From the IMG/VR virus record IMGVR_UViG_3300032301_000209, positions 1 through 36,318 of that record: DNA of 36,318 nt; one strand, written 5' to 3'. Shown here piece by piece: positions 1,364-30,433 of this stretch. This DNA comes from a virus (Duplodnaviria > Caudoviricetes). The translations under genes and the position numbers were made by a program. The notes below the pieces were generated by a model. That model was not told the DNA's origin. It ran no database searches and saw only the letters and a list, made by a program, of their open reading frames with translations. Numbering within the stretch: the stretch's first letter is position 1; every line of letters begins with the position of its first letter.

Positions 1364-2103
1364 TGGCAGACATAGATGTTATATCAGTACTACGTGATGA
1401 CAACGAGTACTACAATGGTATTGGCAAACAATACCTATCCAATTCAGACATAGGCATATTGCTTAACAATCCTCAAGACTTCGGTAAGACTCGGGAAGAT
1501 AACAAAGCATTTATGGATGGCAGATACTTTCACCAATTAATATTGGAGCCTGAGAAGGCGAAGGTTGTGCCATTCGTAGATGTGAGCACACGTAATACCA
1601 AAGAGTATAAAACATTCTGCGAAGATTACAACTTACCTTTTTGTATGCTCAGAAAGGAGCAAGAAGAAATTCAAAACCTTGTGAACATTATCAATGGGAA
1701 CATTGCGTTCTATGATGAGATTTACAAGGCCGGTAATCAGTACGAGACTCCGGCAGTTGCTGAGATTCAAGGTATGATGTGGAAAGGAAAGGCTGACATT
1801 GTCACTGACAATGCGGTGATTGACCTTAAGACTACAAGTGATATTCATAAGTTCAAATATACTGCGAAGCAGTACAATTATGATAGTCAGTGCTACATTT
1901 ATCAGGAACTATTTGGTAAGCCATTGGTGTTCTATGTGATTGATAAAGGTACCGGAGTTTTAGGTATCTTTAGGCCAACGGATGACTTTGTAAAAGGTGG
2001 CGAAGCTAAAGTAGGTAAGGCGATTGAGGTGTATAATAAATACTTTAGCGCTAAGCCATCAGATGATATAGTGAACTATTACATTGACGAGTATTTATTA
2101 TAG
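1363..2103 (+). CDS. PD-(D/E)XK exonuclease (RecE/exonuclease VIII-like, DUF3799 type)
   Basis: LSNSDI, G.YFH..ILEP, KGKADIV, IDLKTT and Y.YDSQ.YIY motifs; TAATG coupling to the annealase. Confidence 0.8.
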   Translation: MADIDVISVLRDDNEYYNGIGKQYLSNSDIGILLNNPQDFGKTREDNKAFMDGRYFHQLILEPEKAKVVPFVDVSTRNTKEYKTFCEDYNLPFCMLRKEQEEIQNLVNIINGNIAFYDEIYKAGNQYETPAVAEIQGMMWKGKADIVTDNAVIDLKTTSDIHKFKYTAKQYNYDSQCYIYQELFGKPLVFYVIDKGTGVLGIFRPTDDFVKGGEAKVGKAIEVYNKYFSAKPSDDIVNYYIDEYLL

Positions 2104-2118
2104 TGTCTTCAAAGACAC
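2103..2118. repeat. 16-bp palindromic element, copy 1 (GTGTCTTCAAAGACAC)
   Basis: Read directly; begins at the exonuclease stop codon; A/T flanks extend the symmetry. Confidence 0.9.
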
Positions 2119-2200
2119 TCAAGATAAACTAATTATTAGCTTAGCCTCAGAGGTTAGTGATTGGTATAAATAGACTGAGGCAAAAAATAAATTTAGAACG

Positions 2201-2512
2201 ATGGCAAACGAAGAAAAAATCTTTGCAGACGGATTCTCATTCAAGAGAAACGAAAATGCACCTGACTTTGTAGTTGGGAGATTATCAATGAAAGTAGATG
2301 AAGCGGTAGCGTTCATCAGACAGCACGAGAAAGGTGGATGGGTAAACCTAAACATTAAGACTGCACGTAGTGGCAATCATTATGTTGAGTTGGATACCTA
2401 CGAGCCGACTGCTCAGAGTGGTATGAAACCACAATCAGAGAAGGCTACTACTCCTAAGCAAAAGGCACCTAAACCTGAGGTGGCTGATGAAGAAGAGGGA
2501 CTTCCCTTTTAG
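2201..2512 (+). CDS. putative single-stranded DNA-binding protein
   Basis: Small beta-rich domain, low-complexity linker and acidic tail DEEEGLPF like SSB C-termini; follows annealase and exonuclease. Confidence 0.65.
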   Translation: MANEEKIFADGFSFKRNENAPDFVVGRLSMKVDEAVAFIRQHEKGGWVNLNIKTARSGNHYVELDTYEPTAQSGMKPQSEKATTPKQKAPKPEVADEEEGLPF

Positions 2513-2539
2513 AATTGGCACCCATTAGAAACAAAGATT

Positions 2540-2566
2540 GGGGGAGTGAAAACTTCCCCTTTTTTT
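2540..2566 (+). terminator. rho-independent terminator
   Basis: GGGGGAGT-GAAA-ACTTCCCC stem (one G-U pair, GNRA loop) followed by T7. Confidence 0.85.
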
Positions 2567-2579
2567 ACCTCTAATGCGT

Positions 2580-2738
2580 GACGAAAATGTCGATATATTT
2601 TTCCTATATTCTCTATATGTGTTTTTCTATTCTTCTTATTTTTTTTAATTATATTTTGAATAAAAAATTGACATTATCGACATTAGTATTAATAATCAGA
2701 TAGTTAGATACTTAAAACCGACATAAAACCGACATATA
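2580..2738. other. candidate replication origin or regulatory region
   Basis: Very AT-rich core flanked by a 10-bp inverted repeat (2586-2595/2675-2684) and an 11-bp tandem repeat (2713-2734), directly upstream of the primase-helicase. Confidence 0.5.
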
Positions 2739-5162
2739 ATGGTACATAATGTGACGATATTCCAAAATATTAGAGATACTGACACGCCATTCTTCCGAGA
2801 TGTACACGTTATACTCGAGAGAATAAAGGACGGAGCCGGTGCTACTAAGGATTTGGTAAAGAAAATACGCTTAGAGAAGCGTAAGCCTGAGAGACAGGAA
2901 CTAAAAAAGCAATTGCCGGCAATATGTTTCAGTGGTACATTCAATAAAAGAACAGATGTATCACTGCTTGAGCATTCAGGATTGATATGTTTGGACTTCG
3001 ATGGCTACACTAAGATGAAAGAGTTGTTGCAAGACAAAGAGAATTTATCAAAGAACAAGTATGTGTTCTCTGTATTCATTTCCCCTTCGGGTAATGGGCT
3101 GAAAGTTTTGGTGAAGATTCCGGCAGATGCAGAGAACCATACAATGTACTTTAATTCGTTAGAAAAGTACTTTAATTCGCCTTATTTCGACAAGACGAGC
3201 AAGAACCTTAGCCGAGTTTGTTACGAGTCATATGACCCTCTAATTGCGATTAATGAGAATAGTAGTATTTGGGATGTGATTGAGGAGCCTGAGTACACTG
3301 AGGTAAGTAAGACAAGAGACAAGGCAACCATTCCTATCACGGATGAGAATAAAATTGTGGAGATACTTGTAAAGTGGTGGGAGAAAAAATATCCTATGCA
3401 AGAGGGACAACGTAATCAGAATGCGTATGTGCTTGCAATGGCGTTCAATGACTTCGGTATCAACAAGAGCCTTGCATCTTATGTGCTTAATCAGTTTGCA
3501 ACTGACGACTTTACACTTAGAGAGATTGCAACCACTATTGACTCAGCATATAAACACACTGCGAACTTCGGCACTAAGTACTACGAGGATGAGGAGCGTA
3601 TCAATACCATTAAAGCAAAGTTAAGGAGAGGTGTATCAAAAAAAGAGATTCGCATCCAACTGCAAGACTCCAATTTGGACAGCGAGACTATCGACTCGGT
3701 GCTTAATAAGGTTGAGGAAGAGAATGCAATGCAAACCTTTTGGGACAGAAACGATAGAGGAGTTATAAAGATTGTGCACGTACAATTCAAACAATTCTTA
3801 GAAGACAACGGATTCTACAAGTACTGCCCTGAGGGTGGTAAGAATTATATATTCGTAAAGGTTACCAATAACTTGATTGACCACACGAGTGAGAAAGAGA
3901 TTAAGGACTTCGTGCTTACGCACTTGTTGGAGTTAGATGACATTGCGGTGTACAATTACTTCGCTGATAATACGAGATTCTTCAAAGAAGAGTTTTTGTC
4001 AATGCTATCAACGATTGAGATTTACTTTATTGCTGATACCAAGGATGCCTCATACTTGTACTATAAGAATTGTGCTGTGAAGATTAGTAAGGATGGGATA
4101 ACAACGCTCGACTACTTGGACTTAGGAGGATACGTGTGGAAAGACCACGTGATTGATAGGAACTTTAATATCTGTGATGTCACCGGAAAGTGTGACTTCA
4201 AAAGATTTGTGAGCAATATCAATGGTGGAGACGAGCAGAGAGTTAAGTCTATGGAGAGTACGCTTGGATTCCTAATGCACGGATACAAGAACCTATCATT
4301 TTGTCCGGCTGTGATTCTGAATGACGAGGTGATTAGCGACAACCCTGAGGGTGGAACAGGTAAGGGATTGCTTATGAATGCACTTAGTAAGATGAAAAAA
4401 TTAGTTGTGATTGATGGTAAATCATTTGCTTTCGAGCGTAGCTTCGCTTATCAGTTGGTGTCAGCAGATACGCAGATACTATGCTTCGATGATGTAAGGA
4501 AACACTTTGACTTTGAGCGTTTGTTCTCAGTGGTTACTGAGGGTCTAACACTCGAGAAGAAAAACAAGGACGCAATAAAGATTCCATTTAGTCGTTCTCC
4601 TAAGATAGCTATCACTACGAACTATGCTATCAAGGGTGCCGGTAATTCATTTGCGAGAAGAAAGTGGGAGTTGGAGCTTCATCAGTATTATACTAAAGAA
4701 TTTACGCCACTTGATGAGTTTGGTAAGTTGATGTTTGGAGATTGGAACGATGAGGATTGGTGTGAGTTTGACAACTATATGATTGGATGTTTGACTACCT
4801 ACATTAAGATTGGACTTGTCAAGAGTAAGTTCGTGAACCTTAAGATTCGTCAGTTGTCAGCAGAGACTTGCCACGAGTTTATTGAGTGGTGTGGGCTTGT
4901 AGACACACATCATAACAGAGAGGTAATGTTGCAACCGGACATAAGGCTTTATAAGAACGAGTTATATGCTAACTTTGTTGATGAATATCCTGACTATGGG
5001 CCTCGAGGTAGGATGAGTATAAGTAGAACAAAGTTCTATAAATGGCTTATTGCTTATGGTATTTACAAGGAAGGAGTGATGCCACAAGAGGATAGAGACC
5101 AACAAGGTAGATGGATAATTATTAAAAGTAAACCTGAGGGACTTGAAGAAGCACCCTTTTAA
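2739..5162 (+). CDS. primase-helicase: BT4734/VirE-N-like AEP domain, PriCT domain and SF3-type helicase
   Basis: LPAICFSG, SGLICLDFD, SPSGNGLK (AEP); EGQRNQNAYVLA (PriCT-1-like); Walker A GGTGKG, Walker B ILCFDD, motif C ITTN. Confidence 0.88.
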   Translation: MVHNVTIFQNIRDTDTPFFRDVHVILERIKDGAGATKDLVKKIRLEKRKPERQELKKQLPAICFSGTFNKRTDVSLLEHSGLICLDFDGYTKMKELLQDKENLSKNKYVFSVFISPSGNGLKVLVKIPADAENHTMYFNSLEKYFNSPYFDKTSKNLSRVCYESYDPLIAINENSSIWDVIEEPEYTEVSKTRDKATIPITDENKIVEILVKWWEKKYPMQEGQRNQNAYVLAMAFNDFGINKSLASYVLNQFATDDFTLREIATTIDSAYKHTANFGTKYYEDEERINTIKAKLRRGVSKKEIRIQLQDSNLDSETIDSVLNKVEEENAMQTFWDRNDRGVIKIVHVQFKQFLEDNGFYKYCPEGGKNYIFVKVTNNLIDHTSEKEIKDFVLTHLLELDDIAVYNYFADNTRFFKEEFLSMLSTIEIYFIADTKDASYLYYKNCAVKISKDGITTLDYLDLGGYVWKDHVIDRNFNICDVTGKCDFKRFVSNINGGDEQRVKSMESTLGFLMHGYKNLSFCPAVILNDEVISDNPEGGTGKGLLMNALSKMKKLVVIDGKSFAFERSFAYQLVSADTQILCFDDVRKHFDFERLFSVVTEGLTLEKKNKDAIKIPFSRSPKIAITTNYAIKGAGNSFARRKWELELHQYYTKEFTPLDEFGKLMFGDWNDEDWCEFDNYMIGCLTTYIKIGLVKSKFVNLKIRQLSAETCHEFIEWCGLVDTHHNREVMLQPDIRLYKNELYANFVDEYPDYGPRGRMSISRTKFYKWLIAYGIYKEGVMPQEDRDQQGRWIIIKSKPEGLEEAPF

Positions 5163-5171
5163 AATTAAAAT

Positions 5172-5792
5172 ATGAAATTAAATTCAAGCATACCAAGTTT
5201 TAAAGCAATGGTAAAGAAATCTTACTTTACTAAAGATGAGAAAGATAGCAATGAATACTACAATGTTTATGTTTTTGGTATTCAATCTTGCGGGGGTAAG
5301 ATACTTACGTTTCACATTATGACTGATTCGGGAATGCTAAGGAGCAGAGTACCGCTATCAGAGATATATACCAAGATACCAACCAATGATATACCATTTA
5401 ACTATAAGCAGTTATGGGATTGTTTTAGCGAGAACGTGGCCGTTATTGAATACGACTTCTTAGCGTTTCATAGAGCTCAAGTTGTGCTAAGAGATAGCAC
5501 CAAGGTATGGGCTACCTATATTATGACGGTGGATTGGTTTAACAATCCTTATAGCGATGAGCCGTCTGACTATAAATGTGGACATATATTAGAAGCAGAT
5601 GACGGATACCTACTTTGTATGCCTAACAATAGAATCTTTTGGAAAGACTCTAATTTTGTGACAAAGCAATTACCTGAAGATTTAAAGCAGTTTAAGGTAG
5701 ATACCGAACTTCATTCTGTAGAAAATCAATCAGACAGATGAGTGGCAGAAGATACCAATTCATTTTATTACGACATAATACAAAGTAAATGA
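5172..5792 (+). CDS. conserved phage hypothetical protein with in-frame TGA at 5739-5741 (truncated form ends at 5741)
   Basis: QLWDCFS, TVDW, KCGHILE, PNNRI.W motifs recalled from aquatic phage proteins; frame stays open 16 codons past the TGA to a second TGA (5790-5792) overlapping the next ATG. Confidence 0.7.
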
Positions 5793-6124
5793 CACAAGAA
5801 CAAACAATTCACGTAGGAGTAATCAATTCATTCAATTTAATTACTGAAAGAAATAGTTTTGAGGAGATAGTTGAATCAGACCTGAGTCTATTTGCTCACA
5901 ACCCTAATGAAGACCCATCGATTGATGTAATAAACTTTTTGATAGATTACTTTAAATCGTATGAGATGTTTGAAAATTGTGTAGAGTTGATGAACTATCT
6001 TGGTGATAACTATGATGACAATGGCGTGTTTATATATAAAGAGTGTGAATGTCAGTTGCCAATAATAACAGAGTATAGCGACAAGATGTTTTGTGGTGAA
6101 TGCGGTAAACGATTAAAGAAATGA
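5789..6124 (+). CDS. hypothetical protein with C-terminal Cys cluster (possible Zn ribbon)
   Basis: CEC...CGECGK at the C-terminus; ATGA overlap with the downstream gene. Confidence 0.7.
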   Translation: MTQEQTIHVGVINSFNLITERNSFEEIVESDLSLFAHNPNEDPSIDVINFLIDYFKSYEMFENCVELMNYLGDNYDDNGVFIYKECECQLPIITEYSDKMFCGECGKRLKK

Positions 6125-7581
6125 CAGCCATAATAGAGAGGACGTCAGGCTATACCAATAAATCAATGTGGAACTATTGCGAAGCGCTCAAGCGTGTGAT
6201 AATGCAGAAGACAGAAGTTAAGGTTGGAAGAGACAAGAGTATTGAGACACTTGATATATACAAATACAAGAACAATGCTGAGACTGTTGAGAAAATTATT
6301 AATAGCTGTCAGTATTATAAAAAATTACACGAGATGGAAAGTGAGCAAGGGTTTAACTATAGAGACTATCAGGTAGAGATTATCGAGAAGGGTCAGCATA
6401 TTCTTTCAAAGTATGGCTTCTTGTATTTGGCAATGGAGGTTCGTACCGGCAAGACCCTGACAAGTCTTGGTATAGCCGAGCGTGTGCACGCAAAGAATAT
6501 ACTATTCATTACAAAGAAAAAGGCGCTGAGCAGTATATCAGACGACTACTCAACACTTAGTCCTTCTTATAATATGCAAGTAATCAACTACGAAAGCCTA
6601 CACACTGTAATGGATGAGCAGAGATGGGACTTGATTATTTGTGACGAGGCGCACGGGATGGGTGCATTCCCAAAACCAAGTAATCGAGCAGAGTTGGTTT
6701 CAGATGTTATAAGAAGATGTAAGCCAATGGTAATCTTGCTGTCAGGAACACCAACACCTGAGTCGTACTCGCAGATGTATCATCAGGTCTATGCCATACC
6801 AAACAATCCATTCAAGGAGTTTAAAAACTTCTACCGATTCTGCGATAAGTATGTAGCAGTCAAGCAGCGCAAGATTAATGGGCTACTTGTAAAAGATTAT
6901 AGTGGCGGATTAGAGACCATCATTAAAGAGATGGAGCCGTACACTATTAACTACACACAGCAGGAGGCAGGATTTATGACCGAGACCACAGAAGAAATAC
7001 TTGAGGTAGAGATGAAGGAATCTACCTATAAACTTATTAAAAAGTTAAAGAAGGATTTGGTTGTAGAAGGAAAAGAAGAATTAATTTTAGCAGATACTCC
7101 GGTTAAATTAATGATGAAAGTGCATCAGTTGTGCTCAGGAACGATTAAGTTTGAGAGCGGAAACTCAATGATAATAGACCTTAGCAAGGCTGAGTTCATC
7201 AAAGAGCAGTTTGATGGGTGCAAGATTGGAATCTTCTATAAGTTTAAAGAGGAGTATAATGCACTCAAGCAAGTGTTTGGAGATGACTTAACTTCTGAGT
7301 TAAGTGTCTTTGAAGACACCGGTAAATCTATAGCTTTACAAATCGTATCCGGACGTGAAGGTATCTCTTTACAAAAAGCCGAGTACTTGGTTTACTATAA
7401 TATAGACTTCAGTGCTACAAGTTATTGGCAGAGCAAAGACCGGATGACCACAAAGGAACGCCTCGAGAATCAAGTGTATTGGATTTTTGCCAAGGATGGT
7501 ATTGAATATGACATATATAAGGCTGTCACAAAAAAGAAAGATTATACTTTAAAACATTTTAATAACACATTCTCACAATAA
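6121..7581 (+). CDS. superfamily 2 (SNF2-like) DExH helicase
   Basis: RDYQ (Q motif), EVRTGKT (I), ICDEAH (II), LSGTP (III), SGREGISLQ (V), WQSKDR (degenerate VI). Confidence 0.88.
   Translation: MTAIIERTSGYTNKSMWNYCEALKRVIMQKTEVKVGRDKSIETLDIYKYKNNAETVEKIINSCQYYKKLHEMESEQGFNYRDYQVEIIEKGQHILSKYGFLYLAMEVRTGKTLTSLGIAERVHAKNILFITKKKALSSISDDYSTLSPSYNMQVINYESLHTVMDEQRWDLIICDEAHGMGAFPKPSNRAELVSDVIRRCKPMVILLSGTPTPESYSQMYHQVYAIPNNPFKEFKNFYRFCDKYVAVKQRKINGLLVKDYSGGLETIIKEMEPYTINYTQQEAGFMTETTEEILEVEMKESTYKLIKKLKKDLVVEGKEELILADTPVKLMMKVHQLCSGTIKFESGNSMIIDLSKAEFIKEQFDGCKIGIFYKFKEEYNALKQVFGDDLTSELSVFEDTGKSIALQIVSGREGISLQKAEYLVYYNIDFSATSYWQSKDRMTTKERLENQVYWIFAKDGIEYDIYKAVTKKKDYTLKHFNNTFSQ
7304..7319. repeat. 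16-bp palindromic element, copy 2 (GTGTCTTTGAAGACAC)
   Basis: Inside the helicase CDS; exact reverse complement of copy 1. Confidence 0.9.
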
Positions 7582-7585
7582 ATAC

Positions 7586-7593
7586 TAATTTTG
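7586..7593 (+). promoter_or_regulatory. Bacteroidota -7 promoter element (TAnnTTTG)
   Basis: TAATTTTG in a 16-nt intergenic gap, 4 nt before ATG 7598. Confidence 0.5.
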
Positions 7594-7597
7594 TAAT

Positions 7598-8569
7598 ATG
7601 AAAACAAAACAACAATTGGCGGCAGAATACTTAGAAAAATTCCCGTCCATTAGTAAAAATTCCATTGCAGCTAAACTTTATAATGATTATGACCAAGTAT
7701 TTAATTCAGTTGAAACTGCAAGGACTTCGATAAGAATGGTTTCAGGAGCTTGTGGTATAAAGTCAAGTAAAAAAATAAATATTACACACACACCTGAGTT
7801 GCCTCCTTCTATTATGAAAAACAGGGAGTTTGTAGATTTGCCAATTAGTAGCAATAAGATTTTATGGTTAAGCGATATTCATATTCCTAATCAAGATAAT
7901 GATGCGCTTAAATTAGCAATTGAGTATGGGGTTAAGAATAAAATAAATTGTATCGTATTAGGAGGAGACTTGTTGGACAATACGCCTTTTACTAATCACG
8001 ATGCGCCACCTCCGTCTGCAAATGATGTGATAGATTGGTTTGAGTATTGTCAAATATTTTTAAGCCACTTAAGAACTAAATTTCCTAAGGCGCACATAGT
8101 TTGGATAGAAGGTAATCACGACAATTGGTATGTTAGATATTTAATGAAAAAAGCGCCAATGCTTTTTAATGATGAATACTACAGACTACCACAAAGACTT
8201 GACCTTAAAAAATATAATGTAGACTTTTATGAACAGCACATTGTAGTTCGTGCGGGTAAGTTGCATATGCTACACGGTCACACAATTGTACGTGGTTTTA
8301 TGGCACCGGTAAATGCTGCACGTGGAGTATTTATGAGAGCAAAGAGTTCAATGATTATAGGACACGTTCACTCTACCTCAAATCACTCAGAGACCAATAT
8401 AAAAGAAGAGCCTATATCTTGTTGGAGCACCGGATGTCTTTGCACACTTGCTCCTGATTATGACCCTCATAATACAAAACATAATGTAGGATTTGCGCAT
8501 ATATTAGTTGAGCAGAATGGAGAATTTGAAGTAATTAATAAAAGAATAATCAATAACAAAATACACTAA
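7598..8569 (+). CDS. calcineurin-like metallophosphoesterase with N-terminal helical extension
   Basis: All five motifs present: SDIH, GGDLLD, GNHD, HGH, GHVH. Confidence 0.9.
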   Translation: MKTKQQLAAEYLEKFPSISKNSIAAKLYNDYDQVFNSVETARTSIRMVSGACGIKSSKKINITHTPELPPSIMKNREFVDLPISSNKILWLSDIHIPNQDNDALKLAIEYGVKNKINCIVLGGDLLDNTPFTNHDAPPPSANDVIDWFEYCQIFLSHLRTKFPKAHIVWIEGNHDNWYVRYLMKKAPMLFNDEYYRLPQRLDLKKYNVDFYEQHIVVRAGKLHMLHGHTIVRGFMAPVNAARGVFMRAKSSMIIGHVHSTSNHSETNIKEEPISCWSTGCLCTLAPDYDPHNTKHNVGFAHILVEQNGEFEVINKRIINNKIH

Positions 8570-8575
8570 TTTGAT

Positions 8576-9581: not shown

Positions 9582-9825
9582 GGCTCAGGGGTATTATGTT
9601 ATCAAACTTACAATGACAAACAAGAATGGGATACCGGACTTGCTTGCCATACCAAGAGATAGTGACGTATTATTTATTGAAGTTAAAGCAGCAAATGGGA
9701 AACTATCTAAGCTGCAAGAATATAGATTGAAAGAACTGCAAAACCACGGAATAAAGGTGGAAGTATTTAAAGAACCTAAAACAGAAGAAGATGCAAGGCC
9801 GAAAAGAAATAGAAGAGTTAATTGA
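9538..9825 (+). CDS. VRR-NUC domain nuclease (possible Holliday junction resolvase)
   Basis: E..VQ, GIPDL, FIEVK, GKLS.LQ motifs. Confidence 0.9.
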   Translation: MKEQQVQAKKIKELEAQGYYVIKLTMTNKNGIPDLLAIPRDSDVLFIEVKAANGKLSKLQEYRLKELQNHGIKVEVFKEPKTEEDARPKRNRRVN

Positions 9826-10300
9826 TATTATTAAGAATGTTATGAACGTAGATGTAACCAAGAAAACCAATGAAAGAGTATATGTAGATGGCAGAATGGT
9901 ATTCTCAAAAATATTAACCGATAGAGGTTATGGTATAGCTATATTGGGTAGAGCGCTTAAGAAACACCATTCAAGTATCATCCATTATAGGACTTCAGCC
10001 AATGATTTATTGGATACCAATGAGTTATTTGCTCAGAAATACTTTGCCTGTAAGGATAAATTTATGTCAGATAAGCAAGATGTATTTAAAATATCAAATA
10101 AAGAACAGCTACTTAATCAAATAGATGCACTAATTTTGGAGAGAAATGCCTTATTAAAAGAAGTTCAAAAGTATAAAAGACTTAAAAATATAATTGAGTA
10201 TATAGACAAAAGAACGCCAAACGATAAAGAGTCTTTCGTGCTTAGAAAAATTAACTTAATGTTTAATGGACTAACTGACTATGAACAAGAAATTAAATAG
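9791..10300 (+). CDS. second DnaA domain IV-like HTH protein with coiled-coil tail
   Basis: YVDGRMVFSKIL...LGRALKKHHSSIIHY; shares YVDxR and HSSIIH with ORF 386. Confidence 0.65.
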   Translation: MQGRKEIEELIDIIKNVMNVDVTKKTNERVYVDGRMVFSKILTDRGYGIAILGRALKKHHSSIIHYRTSANDLLDTNELFAQKYFACKDKFMSDKQDVFKISNKEQLLNQIDALILERNALLKEVQKYKRLKNIIEYIDKRTPNDKESFVLRKINLMFNGLTDYEQEIK

Positions 10301-10475: not shown

Positions 10476-10878
10476 AACAGAGATAGACCTAATTAGAGAG
10501 AAGAAAGCAATTGAACTGTTCGTTAGCATATTTGATGGGTCATACAAGAAGCTCGACCCGCAAGATGTGGATTATAAAGTATTTGATAAGGATAAGAATT
10601 TAATAGCTTACGCAGAGGTTAAAGGACGTATTAGAACAATGAAGGCAGCGTATCCTCTACCTTTATCAGCAAGAAAATTAGTCAAGTTAATTGACAAACG
10701 ATTAGCGCCTGTATTGATATGGGCTTGTGAGGATGGTATCATCTATGGCAAAGCAAACAAACTACAAGGAGAAATCAAATGGGGAGGTCGCCCTCCCCGT
10801 GATGGTTCATTTAGTGATGCTGAGATGATGGTCTACTTTGATAAGCAAAAGGAACTTAAGTACATTAGATACGTTTAA
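10465..10878 (+). CDS. putative PD-(D/E)XK endonuclease
   Basis: N-terminal helix with E, then VDY...AYAEVKGR (D...ExK). Confidence 0.6.
   Translation: MTFETEIDLIREKKAIELFVSIFDGSYKKLDPQDVDYKVFDKDKNLIAYAEVKGRIRTMKAAYPLPLSARKLVKLIDKRLAPVLIWACEDGIIYGKANKLQGEIKWGGRPPRDGSFSDAEMMVYFDKQKELKYIRYV
10771..10798 (-). terminator. candidate terminator for the - strand block, embedded in the opposite-strand CDS
   Basis: Minus strand reads GGGGAGG-GCGA-CCTCCCC-ATTTGATTTC, about 77 nt past the stop of the giant gene. Confidence 0.5.
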
Positions 10879-13800
10879 TATAGCTTCTGTAATCCTCCCT
10901 TACCTTTCTCACGTCTTGGAGTGTAATCGTACATCTCATCTTTCATTGCTCTTTCTACACTATCTTTTTCTTTCTTAAGTAATTTCTCTGCTTCTCTTGC
11001 ATCAAAGTCAGGAGCATCAGGTCCAAATGTTCTATACCAAAGGTCATAATCATAGCGCTTCATATCCTCTTGGTTTTGGAATCCCTGAAGTTTTTCCTCT
11101 TCAATTTTATTTTTGTTTTCAGAAACTTTTTTATCCTTCTCTGCTTTCTCAAGGTCTTTGTAAAGGTCTTTCATTACAGCTTTACGAATGTCTTTATATA
11201 AAGGAATAAGACCCGCATTGCCTAATATCTCAAGAGGCATACGAATATTAAGTTCTTTCTTTCTTCTTTCAATAGCATCCTCTTTTGTTTTTTCAGGCTC
11301 TAATGCTTTACGAGTAATGAAGTCAGCAGTTTTTAATGCAGGACCAAATGCACCACCCATATTTAATAAGAAATCAGACAAGTCTCTTTGTCTACCCTTT
11401 TGTTCAGCAGGAACAATTGAATATTGAATAGCATCTTTATATGGGTCGTAATCTCCTTCTCTTAGGAAGTCGAGATAGTTTTCATTAACTCTTTCTAATC
11501 CATAGTTAACCATCATCTTAATGGCGTTACCAAAGTCACGACCTAATGTAAGTGAAGTAAAGGCAGAAGTAAATGCCTGACCAAGTTTCTGTAAAAACGA
11601 CTTTTCTGTTTCAGGCTCTTCATCATCAAAGAATAATCCCATAAGACCTGTACCCATCATTTGAGTTAGCAATGTATAAACAACCATACGTGTTGTAACC
11701 GCTCCAAGTAATGCGACTCCTTGTTTCTTATCTAATGAACCATTACCCATAGCTGCATTAATAGCTGTGCGTGCTGTAACAAATTCAAATATTAAGAATC
11801 GAGTCATAAAGTTATTAAAGTTATTGAACGCTCTAAGTGTTGCACTTTGATTAGGCTTAGTAGTTCCTTTAAGGATACCCATAAATGCATTATCAGTAGC
11901 ACCCGTCATTACAGACCTTTCGTCTGCTAAGGTCTTAGCTTTATTAATAGCCTCTTTATTATCTTCCATATAAGCCTCATCGTTTGCTGCAATCTTTTCA
12001 AAGTCTACATTTTTTCCTGTAATATTCTTAAACTGATTAGAAAAAGAACCAAACCACATTGGACGCATAATTGCTTTATCCGGTGTAGATATTAAAGCAT
12101 CAGCTTGTAGCTCAATAAAATTTGTATATTTCTTGCCTGATAAATTCCAAATCTGTTGAATCTTATTAGCTACAGCATTTTTTGCTTTACCTCCTTTAAT
12201 ACCACTTGCTTGATTTAATATTGAAGTATCAATTAATTTTCCTGATAAAGTATCAGTAGGAAATATTCTATTTGTTTGTTTACTATTTACGTTCTCCATT
12301 ATAAGAGGCGCATCAGTAGACATAATAACTCCTTTATACTTAACTCCTTCTGTAAATGCTTTCGGGTCAGAGATTAAAGCAAATCCAATGTTTGAACTTA
12401 ACTCAGATATAAACCTGCCTGTACCTGCAAGTATCGCACGATATCCTTGCTTGTTAATATAGTTAATTACGTCATCAGCAATTGATGTGCTTACATAAGT
12501 ATTAGTAAGTAAGTTCTCAATAGCTTCTTCAAATGCACTATTAATAGCATTAATAATCTCTCTTTTTTCTTTTGGTATTCTACCTTCCTGCTCTAAGTTA
12601 GCAACTGTTTGGTTGATTGTCTTACGAGCTGTACGAATTGGCTCAGTCAAGTTGTAATCCATTAAGACAAACTTAGCACCACGTTGAGCACTTGCGAATA
12701 CGTCAAAGTTTAATGGAGATACCTTACCTGTTCTCGCTATCAAAGACTTTGCTTTAGTAGATGGTCTCATTGAGTCGTTATACTCAGTGATAAATGCGCT
12801 ACCCGTAGTCAAGTCATTAGGCTGATGCTCGTGTAGTACGTTTAAGTGAACGTAATTATTTAGTGGACTGATTCTATCGCCACGAATAATCGCTGCCGTA
12901 TATTCTGCTTTCTCTCTTAGAGATTCGTTTACACCACGAATATCTTTAATGGCGTCTTTCTCTGCTTGGTTAAATGAATTGTACAATTTTTCATTGTCAA
13001 TATTTCCATCAGCATCAGTGTACTTGTCAAGTATCTCTTGTAACATCTCAGCTTCACGCTCAGCAAACTGAGACTTGCCTGCATCAATATGTTTAATAGT
13101 AGCTTTTAAGTAATTAGCAGCAGGATTTACTTCCTTATTACCTTTATTAGATTCAAATTCAAGTTGAATCATATAAGTCATCATTTTAAACTTAGACATC
13201 AATGTTTTATTAGGGTCAAGTTTAAATGACTTTGCTACCTTCTCTTCAGCTTTTTCTAAAATATTTTGAACCTTCTTAAGTTCTGCGCTAAACTTAGCTT
13301 CACCTTCTGCAGCTTTGTTTAGTATTGAATTGAATATATCCTTTGTCTTAAAGTCTCCAAATAATTGGTCTATATTAAATAATGGGTTTCTTCTAATCAT
13401 TTCAAAAATAGCGCCCTTTTTTGTAATCAATGATTTTGCTCTTGAATACAATCCTGATAATGGAGCAACCTTAGATTTTTTTATAGCAGATGTTAGCACC
13501 TTACCATTATTGATTGCATTCATTTTCTCAACCATCAACTGAGTATAATGAGGTAAATAGTTATTATTAATATTATTAATAACCTTGAGTAAATTTTTTA
13601 ACTCAGTATTGGTTAAACCATCTACTGCATCGGTACCAATAAGCCTACTTAACTCTTTAGCCAAATCTCTTTCATCTTTAGTAGAAAGCTCAGAGCCATC
13701 AACAATAGATTTTTTTACTGCATCAGTTAGTTCATTTCTTTCTGCTGCCAATTCGTCTTCGGTAAGCTCAGTCTCTTCAACTTGCGGAGCAATATCTTCT

Positions 13801-16800
13801 TTATATTTACGCATAGTCTCTGCTTCCTTATCATCAATCTCTTTCTCATCAAGCATTTTTTTAACTGACGCTGCGTAGTCTAACTCATCATCTTTATATA
13901 CTTTGTTATTTGAGTTATTAAATCTGTCAGCTAACTCATCAGCCCTTGACTGCTCGTTGTCAATCTCATCAAGGATAGCTTGAACATCTTTAGTAACTGC
14001 AGACTTCTCATCAAGTGTAAGCACTGCTTGTCTTGCACCAAACATATTAACCAATTCTAAATAACTACCAAGATATTCATTAGGTATAAGCGTTGGATTC
14101 ATAGAAAATAATCTATTCAACGGCCCTACTAATCCATCAGCGATACCAATCTTAGTAACGATATTCTTCTTAGCCATCTTTAACTTACTCTTAGCTACGT
14201 CAATCTTGTCAGCATACTCTGCATTTGCAAATACTTTAGCCATATAGTCAACAAAGTTTGACACTGAAATCTCATTCAGCATATTTACCTTGCCAAATCT
14301 TGATACAATATTAGCTGCTTGGATAGATGTAATCTTTCCTTTTGATGCCATCTCTCTAATGTCCTTAGCCAATTCCTTAGCTGCATCTCTTGACAAGTCT
14401 CTGATTTGCTTGATGACAAGCATCTTTTCTGCTCTTGTAATATTCGTAATATCTTTTAATGCACCAAGCACACGTCCAATTGACACGGCACGCTTAGGTG
14501 CAGCACCCATTTTAGCTCTTGCCTCACGTTCCATTATCTTCTTCTGAGCATCATTGGCATTTTTATACACCTCTGAATTTCTAATAAACGTATCTAAGTT
14601 AGATACTATCTTAGCATCAGCTATACCTCTTGATTTTTGACGAGCGATTAACTCATCAGCCTTTGTCATTAATGCATCGTATTGCGCCTGAATAGGAGCA
14701 ATTTGACTAACAGCATTGATACCATCAATAACATCACGGCTGTTTACATTATTATCTTTAGCAACTCTCTTGATGGCTTCTTGTAATACAACACCTGCGT
14801 CAACCAATGCTTTAATTGCTTTAAGAATGGTTTTCATTACAGGCAATGCTATATTAACACCAAGATTCTCTTTCTCAAACTTGTCAATGTCCTTAATTAC
14901 TTTATCAAGACCTGACTGAATCTTCTGAAGCGTTGTCTTATCATTAGGGTCTAATGCAAGTAAATCATCTAACGCACCTGTTACTTGCTCTTCTACTGTA
15001 GGCTCAGCCTTTGCTTTAGCTTTAGCTTTCTTAGCTGCAACTTTAGCCTTTTCTTTTGCTTTTTTCTTTTGCTCTTTAGTAAATTCTTTCTTCTTAATCT
15101 TATTATAACTATCAGCAACTGCTTGCTTAGCTTCTCCTAATGTTTCAAATCCATCAAAGCCAATCTCATTACCATCAATATCTTCTGCGGTAAATGAGAA
15201 CATTTTATCTTCATCAGTAAGTTTTGTTATGGTTCCAATTTGGTCACCATCTGCATTACGTGCTTCAACAGTAAGTGATGAGATGTATGTTACAGTTCTT
15301 CCGCTTTCAGTTTCTTTTTCATCTTCAAGATAGTCAATGGCATTGTCCTTAGTAAACGCATCAGTCTTAACCTCAGACGCTTGCATAGGGATAAACTGCT
15401 CTTCTTCTATTATAAGCGTAGGCTCAGCCTGAACAGGCTCAGCAACGACTTCTGTATCTCTTTCTTGTAATCCTTCAGGACGCATAGATACATCACCCAT
15501 ATCTTGCTCATCAAACTGAGAGAACTCTTCAGGTAGTAATCCAATCTTTTGTTCTGCAAAAGAACCTTCTTCATATATCTTATCAACTAACTTCTTAGCA
15601 CCTTCAATATCACCTGCCTCACGAAGTTTTCTTGCCTCGTCTCTGTCTTTCTCAATTTTCTCATTAACACCTGAAAAGTTTACAAATGCATTTTGTCCAC
15701 GTGTCTCAGTAGTCATAGCTCGTCTTGCAAGTGGAGAGAACATACGCACGTGTACATTCCAAGCATTCTCTTCACCTTTAGGACCAAATGAATTGCCTAA
15801 CTCAGCGTGTCCAAAGAAATCGTGTACAGCACGGAATAAATCATTTATAAGTAAAGGTTTGCCATTGACATCTTTAAACTTAGTTTTAGCAAGTAAAGGA
15901 TTTTCTTTTCTTTGCTTAGGAGTAATTGCAATATCTCCAAATCCTGATTCTGTAGAGAATATTTTAATACGCTTATTGTTTCTCAAGTCATCAATCATTT
16001 CTTGAGAATTGGCATAAGGCTCTTCATTATTTATTTCTATAGTATATCCTGCATCTAAAAATTCCTTATACTGCTCTATAGTTTCCTTTGCCATTGCCTC
16101 ATATGCCGCTTTGACCTCAGGGTCATTAGGCTTATGCTCCATATCAATAAAGGCTTGGGCTAAGCGTTTTGCTCTTGCTTCATCAAGTCCTCTTGAGCCA
16201 AAGTATTTTGGTCTCTCAGTTCCGAAAATTCGTTGATAATATCTATTCGCAATTTCCGATACTGCCTTGATGGGCTTATTAAAGAGTCTGTTTCCTGAGA
16301 CAGGTCCACCTGTTGGTTTTGTTGTTGGTTCTGCATTTTCTTGTATTTGAGTTGTTGGTTGTGTCTTTAAAGACACTGTAGGTTTTATATCAAATAATAT
16401 ATCAACAGACTTAACTACAGGTGATTCAACACCTTTAGTTTTGTCTTCTTTATATTTATTCATTAATTCATTAACGTCAGCAAATTCAACTTGAGGGCTT
16501 GATTGATTAAGCATTGTGCTTAAAGTAGATAAAGCATCCTGTTTAGCTGCTTGATTTGTATCTGCTCTATCTCCAAATTGGAAACCAAAAAAGTCAGCTA
16601 ATTTTTTAAAAGCCTTATTAGACTTTCTTGTTGCAACTCTTCTCTCGTTTGGAGTTCCTTCACTTGTGGATGTTGCTGCAATATAGTTATCAACTAATTC
16701 ACTTAATTGTCCTCCTATTTCTTGCGACTTCTCATCAGTGATGACTTCTTGGGTCCCTGTGGTAATGACTTGAGGTCCTTGGTCTCCTTCGACCACTTGC

Positions 16801-18737
16801 TGCAATCCCACTTCGGGTTGTTCTGTGCGTAGCACGCCTTCATCTGTTGTTTGTTTTTGAATGGCATCTTGTTGTTTTTTTAATGTTTGTAATTCCTCAG
16901 CAGCCTTAGACCACTCAGGAGATGTTACAGATAATTCAGAGTCAGGAGCAACTAATGCTTCTAACTCAGCAATTCTTGCTGTTCTTTGTGCAGTAACCTC
17001 AGGAGCTTCTATAACCACTGCTTCAACTTGTGGTTTAGACTCCATTATAATCTGTTGTATTTGATTGTTGAGGTCAGCAATCTCTTGCTTTTCTCTTGCT
17101 ACAAGTACATCGTCTTTATTCTGTATGTCAGTTTTTAATTGGTCTCTTTGTCTAAGTAAAGTAGCAATCTGAGCCTTCTCTGCATTGGTAACCTTTAAGT
17201 CTTTTACAGCATTTGAAACCTGCTGTACCTTGTCGAATACATATAATGATTGCTTTGCTTCATCTTCTGAAATCTCACCATCCTTTACTTTCTTATTTAA
17301 GTTCTTAGATAATATATCTCTTGACTTATTAGTATTAGCTATTTGAATTTGCTCTGCTGTAATAGGAGCATCTTTTGACACATTAAATACTTGGTCTAAT
17401 TTTGTATCAGTATCTTTTAATACGGCATTTATCTCTTCCTTAGACTTGTATGTCTCAACAAGATTAGTTATCTTATCCTTTGCTTTCATTGCATTGATAG
17501 GAGCTGTGAACACCACACCACTACCTGCACCTGTTACAAATGCGTCAGCAACACCTTCAAAAGTAGGCTTATTGCTAAGCACATTCTGAGTAATTTGAGT
17601 AGCTGCCTCTTCAATACCTTCACCCAATAGACCAATAGGAGCACCATACTTTGTCAATGCACCTTTATAAGCCTGAACTAAACCATCTCTAAAAATATTC
17701 TTTCCTACTTCTACACCTTCTTTCTTAACAATGTCTTTGTAAACTTGACCAATTGTACCTGTACCAATTGCACTAAATACAGTCTCAGCCGCAGACATAC
17801 CTAATGCTTTTACCGTCTTCTCAATCTCAGGCATATCAGGATTTTCTTCTCCTAATTGTTCTCTATTTTGCTCAAGAAATCCGGCAGTACTAATTGCTGC
17901 TAACTCAGCAGGAGCAAGTGTAGCTCCTCCCATCATCATAGCTATACTTACAGGAGCAGACTCTACAATGCTACTTCCAAGTAATTCAAATGCATCACCA
18001 TAGTTGCCCTTCTGTATATTGTCTACAATACCTGAACTTTCGTATCTTTCTTTATTAAATTTAGCAGTAACCTCTTGTAATCTTTTCTCTTCTTCGTTTA
18101 GCTTATTTAATACGGGATTGCTTATGCCAAACTGTTTTTTAAATGTATCAGCGTTAGCTGCAATGTCCCAACCTGTAGCCCAAGCCAATGCATTCTGAGG
18201 TATAGATGCAATATTGATAACTGTCTCAGGTATAGATGCAACCATCTTCTCTAATGAGGTAAGACCTGATAATGCTCTTGTGCCTATGTTTTTTAAGTAA
18301 ACATTTTCTTCCTCAGGCATTTCAAGCGCTCCTAAATTCTTAATTAATTTTTCTTTCTTAGGCGGAGCCATCTCAGGTATAACATTCGTTATAGTCTCAG
18401 GAAGAGGCGTAACACCTGTTGGCGTTGCAAATCCTGTCTCTGCTGCTACTTGTCCTTCTCTAAGAAATTTAGGAAGCGGTTTTGACGAAACCAAAGAAGT
18501 ATCTTCCGAAGGTAATTCCGTAGTACCTTTTTTTTTTAACTCAGGCTGAGCACCTATACCCATAAGAACTTTGTAGTCTTCAATACTTTTACCATAACCT
18601 TGTGCCGTAAATAGATTATAAGAATCATTCAATGCGTTAGGATTAGTAGCAATTAAACTCTTAAAATCGTCAATGCTTTTACCATATCCTTGTTGAACAA
18701 ATAAGTTATAGGCATCTTGTATTGCTTGCTCGTTCAT
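10875..18737 (-). CDS. giant virion/ejection protein (2620 aa), polyvalent type, with zincin-like domain
   Basis: Last gene of the virion block; largely helical; Gly/Ala-rich hydrophobic segments with GEGIEEAATQ near the N-terminus; HDFFGH...GEENA motif; hydrophobic helices near the C-terminus. Confidence 0.7.
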   Translation of the reverse strand: MNEQAIQDAYNLFVQQGYGKSIDDFKSLIATNPNALNDSYNLFTAQGYGKSIEDYKVLMGIGAQPELKKKGTTELPSEDTSLVSSKPLPKFLREGQVAAETGFATPTGVTPLPETITNVIPEMAPPKKEKLIKNLGALEMPEEENVYLKNIGTRALSGLTSLEKMVASIPETVINIASIPQNALAWATGWDIAANADTFKKQFGISNPVLNKLNEEEKRLQEVTAKFNKERYESSGIVDNIQKGNYGDAFELLGSSIVESAPVSIAMMMGGATLAPAELAAISTAGFLEQNREQLGEENPDMPEIEKTVKALGMSAAETVFSAIGTGTIGQVYKDIVKKEGVEVGKNIFRDGLVQAYKGALTKYGAPIGLLGEGIEEAATQITQNVLSNKPTFEGVADAFVTGAGSGVVFTAPINAMKAKDKITNLVETYKSKEEINAVLKDTDTKLDQVFNVSKDAPITAEQIQIANTNKSRDILSKNLNKKVKDGEISEDEAKQSLYVFDKVQQVSNAVKDLKVTNAEKAQIATLLRQRDQLKTDIQNKDDVLVAREKQEIADLNNQIQQIIMESKPQVEAVVIEAPEVTAQRTARIAELEALVAPDSELSVTSPEWSKAAEELQTLKKQQDAIQKQTTDEGVLRTEQPEVGLQQVVEGDQGPQVITTGTQEVITDEKSQEIGGQLSELVDNYIAATSTSEGTPNERRVATRKSNKAFKKLADFFGFQFGDRADTNQAAKQDALSTLSTMLNQSSPQVEFADVNELMNKYKEDKTKGVESPVVKSVDILFDIKPTVSLKTQPTTQIQENAEPTTKPTGGPVSGNRLFNKPIKAVSEIANRYYQRIFGTERPKYFGSRGLDEARAKRLAQAFIDMEHKPNDPEVKAAYEAMAKETIEQYKEFLDAGYTIEINNEEPYANSQEMIDDLRNNKRIKIFSTESGFGDIAITPKQRKENPLLAKTKFKDVNGKPLLINDLFRAVHDFFGHAELGNSFGPKGEENAWNVHVRMFSPLARRAMTTETRGQNAFVNFSGVNEKIEKDRDEARKLREAGDIEGAKKLVDKIYEEGSFAEQKIGLLPEEFSQFDEQDMGDVSMRPEGLQERDTEVVAEPVQAEPTLIIEEEQFIPMQASEVKTDAFTKDNAIDYLEDEKETESGRTVTYISSLTVEARNADGDQIGTITKLTDEDKMFSFTAEDIDGNEIGFDGFETLGEAKQAVADSYNKIKKKEFTKEQKKKAKEKAKVAAKKAKAKAKAEPTVEEQVTGALDDLLALDPNDKTTLQKIQSGLDKVIKDIDKFEKENLGVNIALPVMKTILKAIKALVDAGVVLQEAIKRVAKDNNVNSRDVIDGINAVSQIAPIQAQYDALMTKADELIARQKSRGIADAKIVSNLDTFIRNSEVYKNANDAQKKIMEREARAKMGAAPKRAVSIGRVLGALKDITNITRAEKMLVIKQIRDLSRDAAKELAKDIREMASKGKITSIQAANIVSRFGKVNMLNEISVSNFVDYMAKVFANAEYADKIDVAKSKLKMAKKNIVTKIGIADGLVGPLNRLFSMNPTLIPNEYLGSYLELVNMFGARQAVLTLDEKSAVTKDVQAILDEIDNEQSRADELADRFNNSNNKVYKDDELDYAASVKKMLDEKEIDDKEAETMRKYKEDIAPQVEETELTEDELAAERNELTDAVKKSIVDGSELSTKDERDLAKELSRLIGTDAVDGLTNTELKNLLKVINNINNNYLPHYTQLMVEKMNAINNGKVLTSAIKKSKVAPLSGLYSRAKSLITKKGAIFEMIRRNPLFNIDQLFGDFKTKDIFNSILNKAAEGEAKFSAELKKVQNILEKAEEKVAKSFKLDPNKTLMSKFKMMTYMIQLEFESNKGNKEVNPAANYLKATIKHIDAGKSQFAEREAEMLQEILDKYTDADGNIDNEKLYNSFNQAEKDAIKDIRGVNESLREKAEYTAAIIRGDRISPLNNYVHLNVLHEHQPNDLTTGSAFITEYNDSMRPSTKAKSLIARTGKVSPLNFDVFASAQRGAKFVLMDYNLTEPIRTARKTINQTVANLEQEGRIPKEKREIINAINSAFEEAIENLLTNTYVSTSIADDVINYINKQGYRAILAGTGRFISELSSNIGFALISDPKAFTEGVKYKGVIMSTDAPLIMENVNSKQTNRIFPTDTLSGKLIDTSILNQASGIKGGKAKNAVANKIQQIWNLSGKKYTNFIELQADALISTPDKAIMRPMWFGSFSNQFKNITGKNVDFEKIAANDEAYMEDNKEAINKAKTLADERSVMTGATDNAFMGILKGTTKPNQSATLRAFNNFNNFMTRFLIFEFVTARTAINAAMGNGSLDKKQGVALLGAVTTRMVVYTLLTQMMGTGLMGLFFDDEEPETEKSFLQKLGQAFTSAFTSLTLGRDFGNAIKMMVNYGLERVNENYLDFLREGDYDPYKDAIQYSIVPAEQKGRQRDLSDFLLNMGGAFGPALKTADFITRKALEPEKTKEDAIERRKKELNIRMPLEILGNAGLIPLYKDIRKAVMKDLYKDLEKAEKDKKVSENKNKIEEEKLQGFQNQEDMKRYDYDLWYRTFGPDAPDFDAREAEKLLKKEKDSVERAMKDEMYDYTPRREKGKGGLQKLY
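16361..16376. repeat. 16-bp palindromic element, copy 3 (GTGTCTTTAAAGACAC, perfect)
   Basis: Inside the giant CDS in a T/Q/P-rich linker. Confidence 0.9.
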
Positions 18738-22277: not shown

Positions 22278-22288
22278 AGTTATTTATT

Positions 22289-29546: not shown

Positions 29547-29560
29547 TACTTCTTTTTTTA

Positions 29561-29568
29561 CAAATATA
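29561..29568 (-). promoter_or_regulatory. Bacteroidota -7 promoter element (TAnnTTTG)
   Basis: Minus strand TATATTTG just after a terminator and 14 nt before ATG 29546. Confidence 0.65.
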
Positions 29569-29571
29569 CAT

Positions 29572-29603
29572 AAAAAAAAAGAGGGTACAATAAGTACCCT
29601 CTT
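29572..29603 (-). terminator. rho-independent terminator
   Basis: Minus strand GAGGGTAC-TTATT-GTACCCTC followed by T9. Confidence 0.88.
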
Positions 29604-29631
29604 CTAACCAATAATCAATAATCAAAACCTA

Positions 29632-30375
29632 TTATGCCAAAGTCGCTTCTAACATTTTTAAGGAGTCAATACCTTCATCGCTTTGTAAGAAGTGGGCTAC
29701 CATCTCATAAGGGTCTTCTCCGAATGGAACAGATAACATCTTCTTTTTGTTGGTAGATGTATTAAACCATACCTCTTTTTCGCCATTTCTTAATACCAAT
29801 AGCTTATTTTCAAAGAATAAACGAACCTTAGCTTGAAACTTCAATTCAGGGTCATTTAATATATTTAAGAACTCTTTTGGGTCTCTTTTAGCAAATACCA
29901 AGATGTCACGCTTTAATTCAGCAGTAGACACGGTAGATGGGTCTTTTCCAAACATAACCCTTGTTAAGGTTTCAATTTGGTCAAGTGATAACTGACGAGC
30001 TTCAATTAAAGCCTCAACTTCTAAGTTTAAGTCTTCTACCTCAGCAGCAGCATCTTTTTCTTTATCTACCTCAACAAATATGTTGCCATTCAGTGGATGG
30101 TAGTGTAAGAATTGTTGTAATACAGGGTTTGTTCTTGGAACTCTTAAGAAGCCATCTTCAAAGATAATTGGCTCTATAATTGCATTTCCATCTTGTTCGT
30201 CCTCGAATGGGGACTGTTGATTCGTTGAATACCTCAATGAACGATTAACATTGTTTTTCTCATCAAACCACATTAGTGGGAATCGAGGGTGGTTTCTTGA
30301 CGCTAATGTATATGATAGCGGATTTCCTATTTTTAACTTGTAGACTTTGTCCACAGGTGTTGTACCTTTTGCCAT
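29632..30375 (-). CDS. conserved protein downstream of major capsid gene (247 aa)
   Basis: Own terminator-bounded unit; IIFEDG.L.V, LQ.FL..HP motifs; function unknown. Confidence 0.7.
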   Translation of the reverse strand: MAKGTTPVDKVYKLKIGNPLSYTLASRNHPRFPLMWFDEKNNVNRSLRYSTNQQSPFEDEQDGNAIIEPIIFEDGFLRVPRTNPVLQQFLHYHPLNGNIFVEVDKEKDAAAEVEDLNLEVEALIEARQLSLDQIETLTRVMFGKDPSTVSTAELKRDILVFAKRDPKEFLNILNDPELKFQAKVRLFFENKLLVLRNGEKEVWFNTSTNKKKMLSVPFGEDPYEMVAHFLQSDEGIDSLKMLEATLA

Positions 30376-30399
30376 TTTGTATTTAATTTAATTAGATTT

Positions 30400-30433
30400 A
30401 AAAAAGGGAGAGTGTCTTTAAAGACACCCTCCC
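30400..30433 (-). terminator. rho-independent terminator after the major capsid gene
   Basis: Minus strand GGGAGGGTGTCTTTAAAGACACTCTCCC followed by T6. Confidence 0.8.
30412..30427. repeat. 16-bp palindromic element, copy 4 (GTGTCTTTAAAGACAC, perfect)
   Basis: Forms the upper part of the post-capsid terminator hairpin; identical to copy 3. Confidence 0.9.

Follow-up and report, generated by a model that had tools for sequence, protein, structure and literature searches.

What reads a 16-bp palindrome that recurs at four dispersed places in a phage genome, and to what effect? The question is raised by IMG/VR record IMGVR_UViG_3300032301_000209, whose entire 36,318 bases were analysed (hereafter the window) and which is a fragment of a ~60-kb GroEL-bearing phage, probably of a Bacteroidota cell. 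The window carries genes for Sak, an exonuclease, a primase, a helicase, portal, terminase and virion proteins; its relatives measure ~60 kb, and therefore the early region is absent from it. Comparison with these relatives makes it highly probable that the palindrome is bound, as double-stranded DNA, by F26, the product of the first early gene. The best overall explanation, to which we assign a probability of about 0.5, is that F26 dampens transcription of the phage's own genes, acting either at a distance or as a roadblock.

The four copies and their sequence context

The four copies (sites 1 to 4) and the features that hold or flank them are:

1363..2103, + strand: exonuclease VIII-like gene, 5' of site 1
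2103-2118: site 1, centre CA, directly 3' of the exonuclease gene; an 18-bp palindrome with its flanks
6121..7581, + strand: SF2 helicase gene, contains site 2
7304-7319: site 2, centre TG, in the helicase at amino acid 395, frame 1, peptide SVFEDT
10875..18737, - strand: giant 2620-aa gene, contains site 3
16361-16376: site 3, centre TA, in the 2620-aa gene at amino acid 788, frame 0, peptide VSLKTQ, in a weakly conserved stretch
30400..30433, - strand: intrinsic terminator 3' of the major capsid gene
30412-30427: site 4, centre TA, top of the post-capsid terminator hairpin
30451..31869, - strand: virion structural gene, read here as encoding the major capsid protein; anchor for finding relatives

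All four copies reported by the first-pass annotation were confirmed as exact matches, and the motif had no match in any of 100 dinucleotide shuffles of the window. Allowing up to three mismatches added one further site against 1.74 expected, that is, no halo of weak sites. A motif-blind search for repeated 7-2-7 palindromes (7-bp arms, 2-bp centre, at most one mismatch) found four in the window and two in each of three shuffles. The same sites occur at the same positions in many independent assemblies and are therefore not an assembly artefact, a concern raised at first pass. A Logan contig covers window positions 1-17000 with zero differences and even depth; it is possibly the window's own source and therefore not an independent confirmation.

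Two copies lie within coding sequences in different frames, and the claim that protein sequence does not explain them stands: given the codon usage of the window, the probability of obtaining the site from the peptide is 0.002 for SVFEDT and 0.006 for VSLKTQ. One copy had been described as overlapping a stop codon and one as topping the post-capsid terminator, both accurately. Site 1 shares its first G with the last base of the exonuclease stop codon, and site 4 caps a minus-strand hairpin with a 12-bp stem and U6 (-21.7 kcal/mol, z -6.3). In contigs of two other runs, from a related strain, window positions 2102-2128 at site 1 are swapped for 151 other letters.

The helicase is a clear case of a DNA site altering protein sequence. 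Within its site, Val is encoded by GTC and Asp by GAC in 16 of 16 cases, whereas elsewhere in the protein just 2 of 139 invariant-residue columns use a single codon. Two relatives with motifs of their own (G056 and G048) have the site rewritten towards these, turning SVFEDT into SPFERT and SVFNDT, respectively, and site-less phages have mostly acidic residues at this position, for example DEFNST. In G035, a relative without F26, the groEL and DUF5872 peptides are kept and the sites are lost through silent changes. At the post-capsid terminator, 6 of 10 readable variant-motif genomes have their own motif as the hairpin top, against 0 of 10 F26-less ones, in which the terminator persists with an ordinary hairpin. 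The giant-gene site recurs in 14 other genomes. Of 76 metagenome loci scored, 34, chiefly those of the closest relatives, have a site no more than 500 bp past the exonuclease stop. In these comparisons, sites hold synonymous codons fixed, are rewritten upon a change of specificity, and decay where F26 is missing. The conservation at synonymous positions in relatives also upholds the earlier proposal of a two-fold symmetric site under selection at the DNA level, probably bound by a dimer.

Scanning 5 of the 64 parts of IMG/VR for the motif gave 162 loci, and ~1,700 IMG/VR stretches with the exact motif are estimated in total; the centre is pyrimidine-purine in 155 of 161 distinct contexts. An exact copy was present in 25 of 80 loci anchored on the capsid gene. 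Among 42 records searched whole, 37 match at up to one mismatch (reversed control: 0), although 35 of the 42 had been picked for holding the motif; of the 7 picked by capsid match, 2 are positive. The scan of relatives proposed at first pass thus found the motif group-wide, at 6-21 copies in motif-positive records at least 90% complete, with the exception of G021, which has one.

The layout has two components: a dense array round the first early gene, and a backbone of scattered sites whose places recur between genomes, namely after the exonuclease, in the helicase, in the giant gene, on the post-capsid terminator, at the terminase start and around groEL codon 220. The window's four copies are backbone sites only. 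Counted over 24 genomes in 2-kb bins from the F26 start, sites number 28 upstream, 50 at 0-2 kb, then 45, 28, 22 and 13, and at most 10 in all bins beyond 10 kb. Gaps in the backbone are at most 10-25 kb in 21 of the 24; ~50 kb are free of sites in G036, G038 and MW202828, and three genomes have sites in the early region only.

Relatives without the exact motif carry other 7-2-7 palindromes, recovered by the motif-blind search (shuffle ceiling: three copies), with the arms GTGTCGT, GGGGGTT, GAGGGTT, GACGCCT, GTACGGT, GTCCGTT, GTGTACA, GTCTCTT, GTGCACT and others. Twelve motif classes were distinguished in 48 entries, and spacer length is variable as well, since G052 (L440, L438) has a divergent F26 with five 7-3-7 palindromes. 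Because spellings differ between relatives, a host protein is not expected as the binder. The suggested scan of host genomes came back empty: none of 301 likely host genomes, all from the order to which G079 (titled Flavobacteriaceae) belongs, holds the motif, and a control pattern is present in 2 of them. In five metagenome-assembled genomes (MAGs), the sole matches are eight copies on one 56-kb phage contig. By capsid likeness, the window stands closest to MW202828, followed by Maribacter, Flavobacterium (Elemovirus) and Cellulophaga phages; MW202828 has F26 (UOF82534.1, annotated as hypothetical) and 14 variant-spelling sites, and elemoF has neither F26 nor an array. The motif strings had no match in literature text, supplements and subscription journals lying outside the search.

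An F26-less array in L573 (2654-4548) turned out to be five identical, oriented GCAA-tetraloop hairpin cassettes before early genes, in slots where others have sites, and not F26 sites. Gapped palindromes in the tail regions of G061, G015, G041, L346 and L355 are collagen-like coding repeats (arm AGGTCCT/AGGACCT); G015, G041, L346 and L355 were relabelled by hand for the correlation analysis below, and G061 was scored array-less.

Some copies do sit on RNA hairpins, and the motif could accordingly be a hairpin (6-bp stem, UYRA loop) that stabilises processed messages, either bound by F26 or alone. Site 4 does cap a genuine terminator, and at least three extra stem pairs are present at 84 of 244 intergenic sites. 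In 27 array-bearing records, 19 of 28 hammerhead-like motifs found with a pattern of our own lie 23-36 nt after a site, the hairpin top changing with the motif class; the same pattern had one match in nine F26-less genomes, and Rfam confirms one such hammerhead in 13 sources. Type III hammerhead ribozymes stand directly behind site-topped hairpins at L505:4645-4717 and in the early regions of G011, G012, G013, G015, G022, G023, G027, G032, G045, G056, G057 and G059. However, sense-strand mismatches comprise 13 G-U and 13 A-C, and an RNA stem would not predict that A-C is as frequent as G-U, which argues for a reading as DNA. Moreover, 67 of 84 intragenic sites extend their stem by no more than one pair, bare stems of -6.6 and -7.1 kcal/mol being typical of the intragenic position, one site lies upstream of the F26 promoter, and the predicted fold of F26 is of the helix-turn-helix (HTH) type. 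Hairpins are real for some copies but do not explain the fixed letters, and we regard this alternative as improbable. Their presence in hammerhead cassettes and terminators indicates that a site is often laid on a hairpin needed anyway, and the sites would account for the fixed hairpin tops of hammerhead cassettes in this phage group.

F26 as the candidate binder

F26 was found by clustering the proteins of 27 records, as the first early gene, of ~210 aa. It is listed here together with the two DnaA-like proteins of the window that had been put forward as local binders at first pass:

1..1, + strand: marker for F26, the likely binder, which lies outside the window; in relatives it starts ~6-9 kb upstream of Sak (example L321:2136-2771:+, from G027)
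386..688, + strand: DnaA_C-like HTH protein (ORF386); tested as binder and rejected
9791..10300, + strand: second DnaA-like family protein (ORF9791); tested as binder and rejected

Among near-complete genomes, F26 is encoded by all 24 that bear an array and by none of the 10 that lack one, the sole perfect split among 64 families scored; nine fragments (the window among them), G063 (13 sites, with a contig gap in the F26 slot) and G052 were excluded from this count of 34 genomes. Six independent pairs on a tree of virion genes (FastTree) agree (sign test p 0.031). A second set was anchored on Sak, with 49 of 80 loci scorable: 25 have F26 and an array, one F26 with three exact sites, 22 neither, and one an array without F26. 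Agreement is 47 of 49, eight of these loci (all with F26) overlapping contigs already sampled and several negatives resembling near-identical strains; the sole array without F26 is an oriented RNA-hairpin cassette. As to the window itself, its closest kin on the virion-gene tree, G027 (92%), has F26, as do 11 of 11 metagenome loci with an exonuclease identity of at least 88% and at least 6.3 kb of upstream DNA. One of these is L586, which is 90% identical in nucleotides to the window over 11 kb.

The DnaA-like proteins, in contrast, track the sites neither in presence nor in divergence. Every array-bearing genome (24 of 24) has a member of the ORF386 family, yet 9 of the 10 genomes without an array have one too; for the ORF9791 family the counts are 18 of 24 and 7 of 10. 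Their divergence follows the motif poorly (rho -0.40 and -0.24, respectively, against -0.79 for F26). Amidoligase-like and GATase-GGCT neighbours travel with F26 as an early module (24 of 24 against 1 of 10; L264:16650-17561, L262:345-1469). They were rejected as determinants of the array: where they are present without F26 there is no array (G035, L557, L560, L563), and G052 has F26 and sites without them. PMC5498523 proposes that similar genes modify the cell wall against superinfection.

Across the 24 genomes, motif distance correlates with identity most strongly for the F26 HTH (rho -0.82) and whole F26 (-0.79), followed by the amidoligase-like gene (-0.70), GATase-GGCT (-0.54), GroEL (-0.48), ORF386 (-0.40), capsid (-0.34) and the F26 C-terminal domain (-0.34). 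These values rank candidates and prove nothing, since genome pairs are interdependent and a single motif is common to 15 of the 24. The predicted recognition helix mostly begins QKS(F/Y), with Lys93 invariant, in 31 entries with the window's motif, and differs in most of 17 others. Five positions of this helix take 70 residue sets among 118 F26 sequences.

No virion or core protein was found to track site presence or spelling, and close relatives with the same virion genes are site-less. This bears on the possibility that early genes are shuffled by recombination or cutting at the sites, or that the sites are packaging or injection signals for a virion or host protein. Many sites do lie at junctions of variable early genes, the related strain has its 151-letter replacement at site 1, and passages of PMC4351075 report recombination between repeats in Cluster O mycobacteriophages. 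Yet cutting or recombination within helicase, terminase or groEL would be harmful, and a host-protein signal fits poorly with the motif being in none of the 301 likely host genomes, so that we hold such a role to be improbable too. The first-pass annotation had favoured a parS/matS-like organising, packaging or injection signal over an operator. The dispersal over both gene blocks stands; the preference is weakened, since the densest array and the likely binder are in the missing early region, three genomes have early-only sites, and a host organising protein is unlikely.

F26 has no convincing match in Pfam, PHROG or PDB sequences, Foldseek found none in the PDB at E <= 0.001, and otherwise the family search gave four unnamed viral models only. 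The family comprises at least 829 clusters at 90% identity (368 at 50%). Its nearest named cluster by language-model features is DUF3102 (PF11300; 0.91, 135 of 256 shared), to which no hidden Markov model match was obtained. Exact peptides found no close relatives in GTDB; among 50,697 annotated phages only MW202828 has F26, and plasmids have none. Scans with two variant F26 proteins returned the source only, or nothing.

The structural model (pLDDT 90.8) has an entirely helical N-terminus with a long helix (23-59), an HTH (76-98; helix 76-84, Gly85, helix 88-98), two more helices, an acidic linker and a small beta/helix domain, the last with no fold match above Z 3.3. KorB is the best DNA-binding fold match (Z 5.5, 84 residues aligned, rmsd 3.3), with the ParB family giving the longest alignments, at scores reachable by common arrangements. 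Over ~80 residues, ParB-type HTH matches are KorB 5.5/4.8, VirB 4.2, SopB 3.9 and ParB 3.7, again within the range of common arrangements. The predicted DNA-binding domain may therefore be called weakly KorB/ParB-like, without the CTPase domain; the GxRR motif of the ParB CTPase is in 1 of 118 F26 sequences. SopB R219 and KorB R240 lie two helices past the recognition helix, according to passages of PMC3597684, and the conserved R124-S125 of F26 (59% and 79%) is at the equivalent position.

Predicted as a homodimer, F26 scored 0.53 against 0.00 for the best control, runs agreeing in at least 95% of contacts with pLDDT of at least 80. Of 30 homodimers with solved structures, 20 attain the mark applied, as does 1 of 23 single chains. 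Contacts are predicted between the N-terminal helices and between the C-terminal beta-hairpin/helix domains. The modelling supports, rather than shows, that F26 is a dimer.

A possible effect on transcription

F26 usually lies behind a -7 box of the TAnnTTTG type, with one site ~165-250 bp upstream of the box and one just after the F26 stop; six sites lie 29-38 bp past the start of a -7 box. The sequences show F26 as the first gene behind a host-type promoter, at the divergence of early and late genes, with sites that bracket it and thin with distance. Its predicted N-terminal coiled-coil dimer would place two HTH domains on a 7-2-7 site, and the second, C-terminal dimer domain on its acidic linker could close the dimer or loop two sites. 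If F26 is indeed the binder, the odds are slightly in favour of bound F26 lowering early transcription, both through loops around its own promoter and by holding up RNA polymerase at terminators and at the junctions of genes. Such negative feedback would time the infection or keep it quiet in a starved host. More speculatively, a superinfecting relative of identical spelling would also be silenced by F26, and this would drive switches of specificity. Sites would be placed where a palindrome is cheap (terminator tops, hairpins before hammerheads, gene gaps) and otherwise in codons.

The same arrangement admits the opposite sign, F26 acting as an activator or anti-terminator from upstream sites 165-250 bp before its promoter and aiding the host polymerase through terminators. 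F26 is expressed first, its upstream site is at an enhancer-like distance, and sites do occur on terminator hairpins. Most sites, however, have no fixed distance to a promoter, and the far intragenic ones would be left unexplained; we give activation little credence.

Several observations weigh against F26 as a repressor, or against F26 altogether. None of 45 predicted early core promoters is overlapped by a site, which excludes simple occlusion and makes looping or a roadblock an assumption. An early repressor also sits uneasily with sites that lie far inside late genes and are under strong selection. The sense-strand centre is CA-biased (119 CA, 69 TG), both orientations being present. F26 is absent from the window, its presence in the window's phage being deduced from close relatives. 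The 15 of 24 genomes that share one motif were first found via that motif; among the 10 negatives, G047, G049 and G050 hardly differ from one another, and the F26 slot is interrupted by a contig break in G047, G049 and G054. G021 retains one perfect helicase site without F26, and L535 and L542 retain two and one exact sites, respectively. The amidoligase-like gene also tracks the motif (rho -0.70), and sliding-window partial correlations, run with four mislabelled rows, are weak (best -0.27 and -0.22). The fold list, dominated by HTH regulators, is topped by an unrelated photosystem chain (Z 5.6), and its scores are middling. Finally, integrase (PF00589) is in 0 of 32 relatives, serine recombinases not having been searched separately. 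ParA (PF13614; control 14 of 14) and ParB_N (PF02195; control 10 of 14) are each in 0 of 32 genomes, and there is thus no known latent state that needs a repressor. Pfam searches of 142 accessory proteins likewise gave no integrase or parABS. In GTDB, 40 of 40 capsid relatives are on MAG contigs, and therefore no sound prophage was seen. L467 and L488 place capsid relatives near the end of a 3.0-Mb MAG contig and in a 1.05-Mb archaeal MAG chromosome, either prophages or misassemblies, neither with F26.

The lack of promoter overlap and of lysogeny genes would suit another role of bound F26, in which it bridges, loops or compacts the incoming genome, or blocks host nucleases or translocases, with transcriptional effects secondary. 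Two distinct predicted dimer interfaces joined by a flexible linker, backbone gaps of at most 10-25 kb in most genomes, and sites kept at amino-acid cost are in line with it, and passages of PMC4351075 argue the same for Cluster O repeats. This architectural or protective role is nevertheless hard to reconcile with the ~50 kb free of sites in G036, G038 and MW202828, with the preference of sites for transcription punctuation points, and with the lack of ParA and of a CTPase domain for spreading. It appears the less likely account, though a serious one. A broader scenario, which we consider doubtful, would have virulent phages without lysogeny genes use a CTP-free double-dimer HTH protein, the first made, to loop their own sites into a nucleoprotein that marks self DNA. 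Competition in co-infection would then lead to dozens of orthogonal protein-site codes (12 seen), forcing the rewriting of sites even in essential proteins.

Known systems and other features of the window

The proposed damping by F26 can be compared with three described systems. Passages of PMC4351075 describe in Cluster O mycobacteriophages a 17-bp dyad repeat that, as here, has 7-bp inverted arms, many inter- and intragenic copies denser at one end, no integrase or parAB, and a predicted dimeric binder. It differs in its 3-bp spacer and its one spelling in five phages, and these passages name no binder, whereas here the spacer is mostly 2 bp, spellings number 12, and a candidate binder co-varies with them. 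The likeness is of a descriptive class, not a homologous family. KorB of plasmid RK2, in passages of PMC11790492, also binds a 16-bp site (OB), proximal to promoters or 45 to >1000 bp from them, and represses at long range, but is a CTPase clamp with a ParB N-terminal domain where F26 has a coiled-coil. Cluster A stoperators (passages of PMC6550527 and PMC4351075) resemble our system in that a single phage HTH protein goes with numerous sites across the genome, silencing by a roadblock is proposed, and the motif diverges along with the repressor; they are asymmetric and oriented with transcription in temperate phages with integrase or parABS, whereas the sites here are palindromic and such genes were not found in 32 genomes. 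If the reading is right, the system would resemble the Cluster O repeats and work like KorB or a stoperator repressor, yet belong with neither of the latter two, because it has no CTPase or ParA, its sites are palindromic, and no lysogeny genes were found.

Dispersed dyad repeats of non-temperate phages, as in Cluster O, had no known binder or function. The phage group described here, large, uncultured and common in lake and sea samples, offers a specific candidate for the binder, whose family is unannotated, along with natural knock-outs and no fewer than 12 variants in specificity. These form a candidate set of possibly orthogonal protein-operator pairs, and a 16-mer plus a single small protein suffice to test the question. 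By our own reasoning, and not by tree placement, the virion genes and GroEL point to the wider Group 2 of putative Flavobacteriaceae phages with GroEL (PMC5332604), the relevant passages of which mention no such repeats.

Contig ends (L327-L406) are loosely clustered, without a sharp position: 13 of 47 fall 357-553 bp upstream of the last late gene, close to the F26 promoter, and may mark a genome end or a break in the assembly. G007 carries Tad2-like anti-Thoeris and Mom-family genes (L255:10974-11330, L255:14271-14912). The window has no hammerhead and no tRNA, and its listing of RNA holders is empty. Two more hairpins stand in its early intergenic gaps, at 55-71 before ORF87 and at 2130-2175 after site 1, and an AT-rich gap (2513-2738) lies 5' of the primase gene. 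Positions 22283-22582 and 22803-23102 are a 300-bp duplication with 78% identity, and a 169-aa gene is a repeat of the C-terminal domain of the 1613-aa tail protein.

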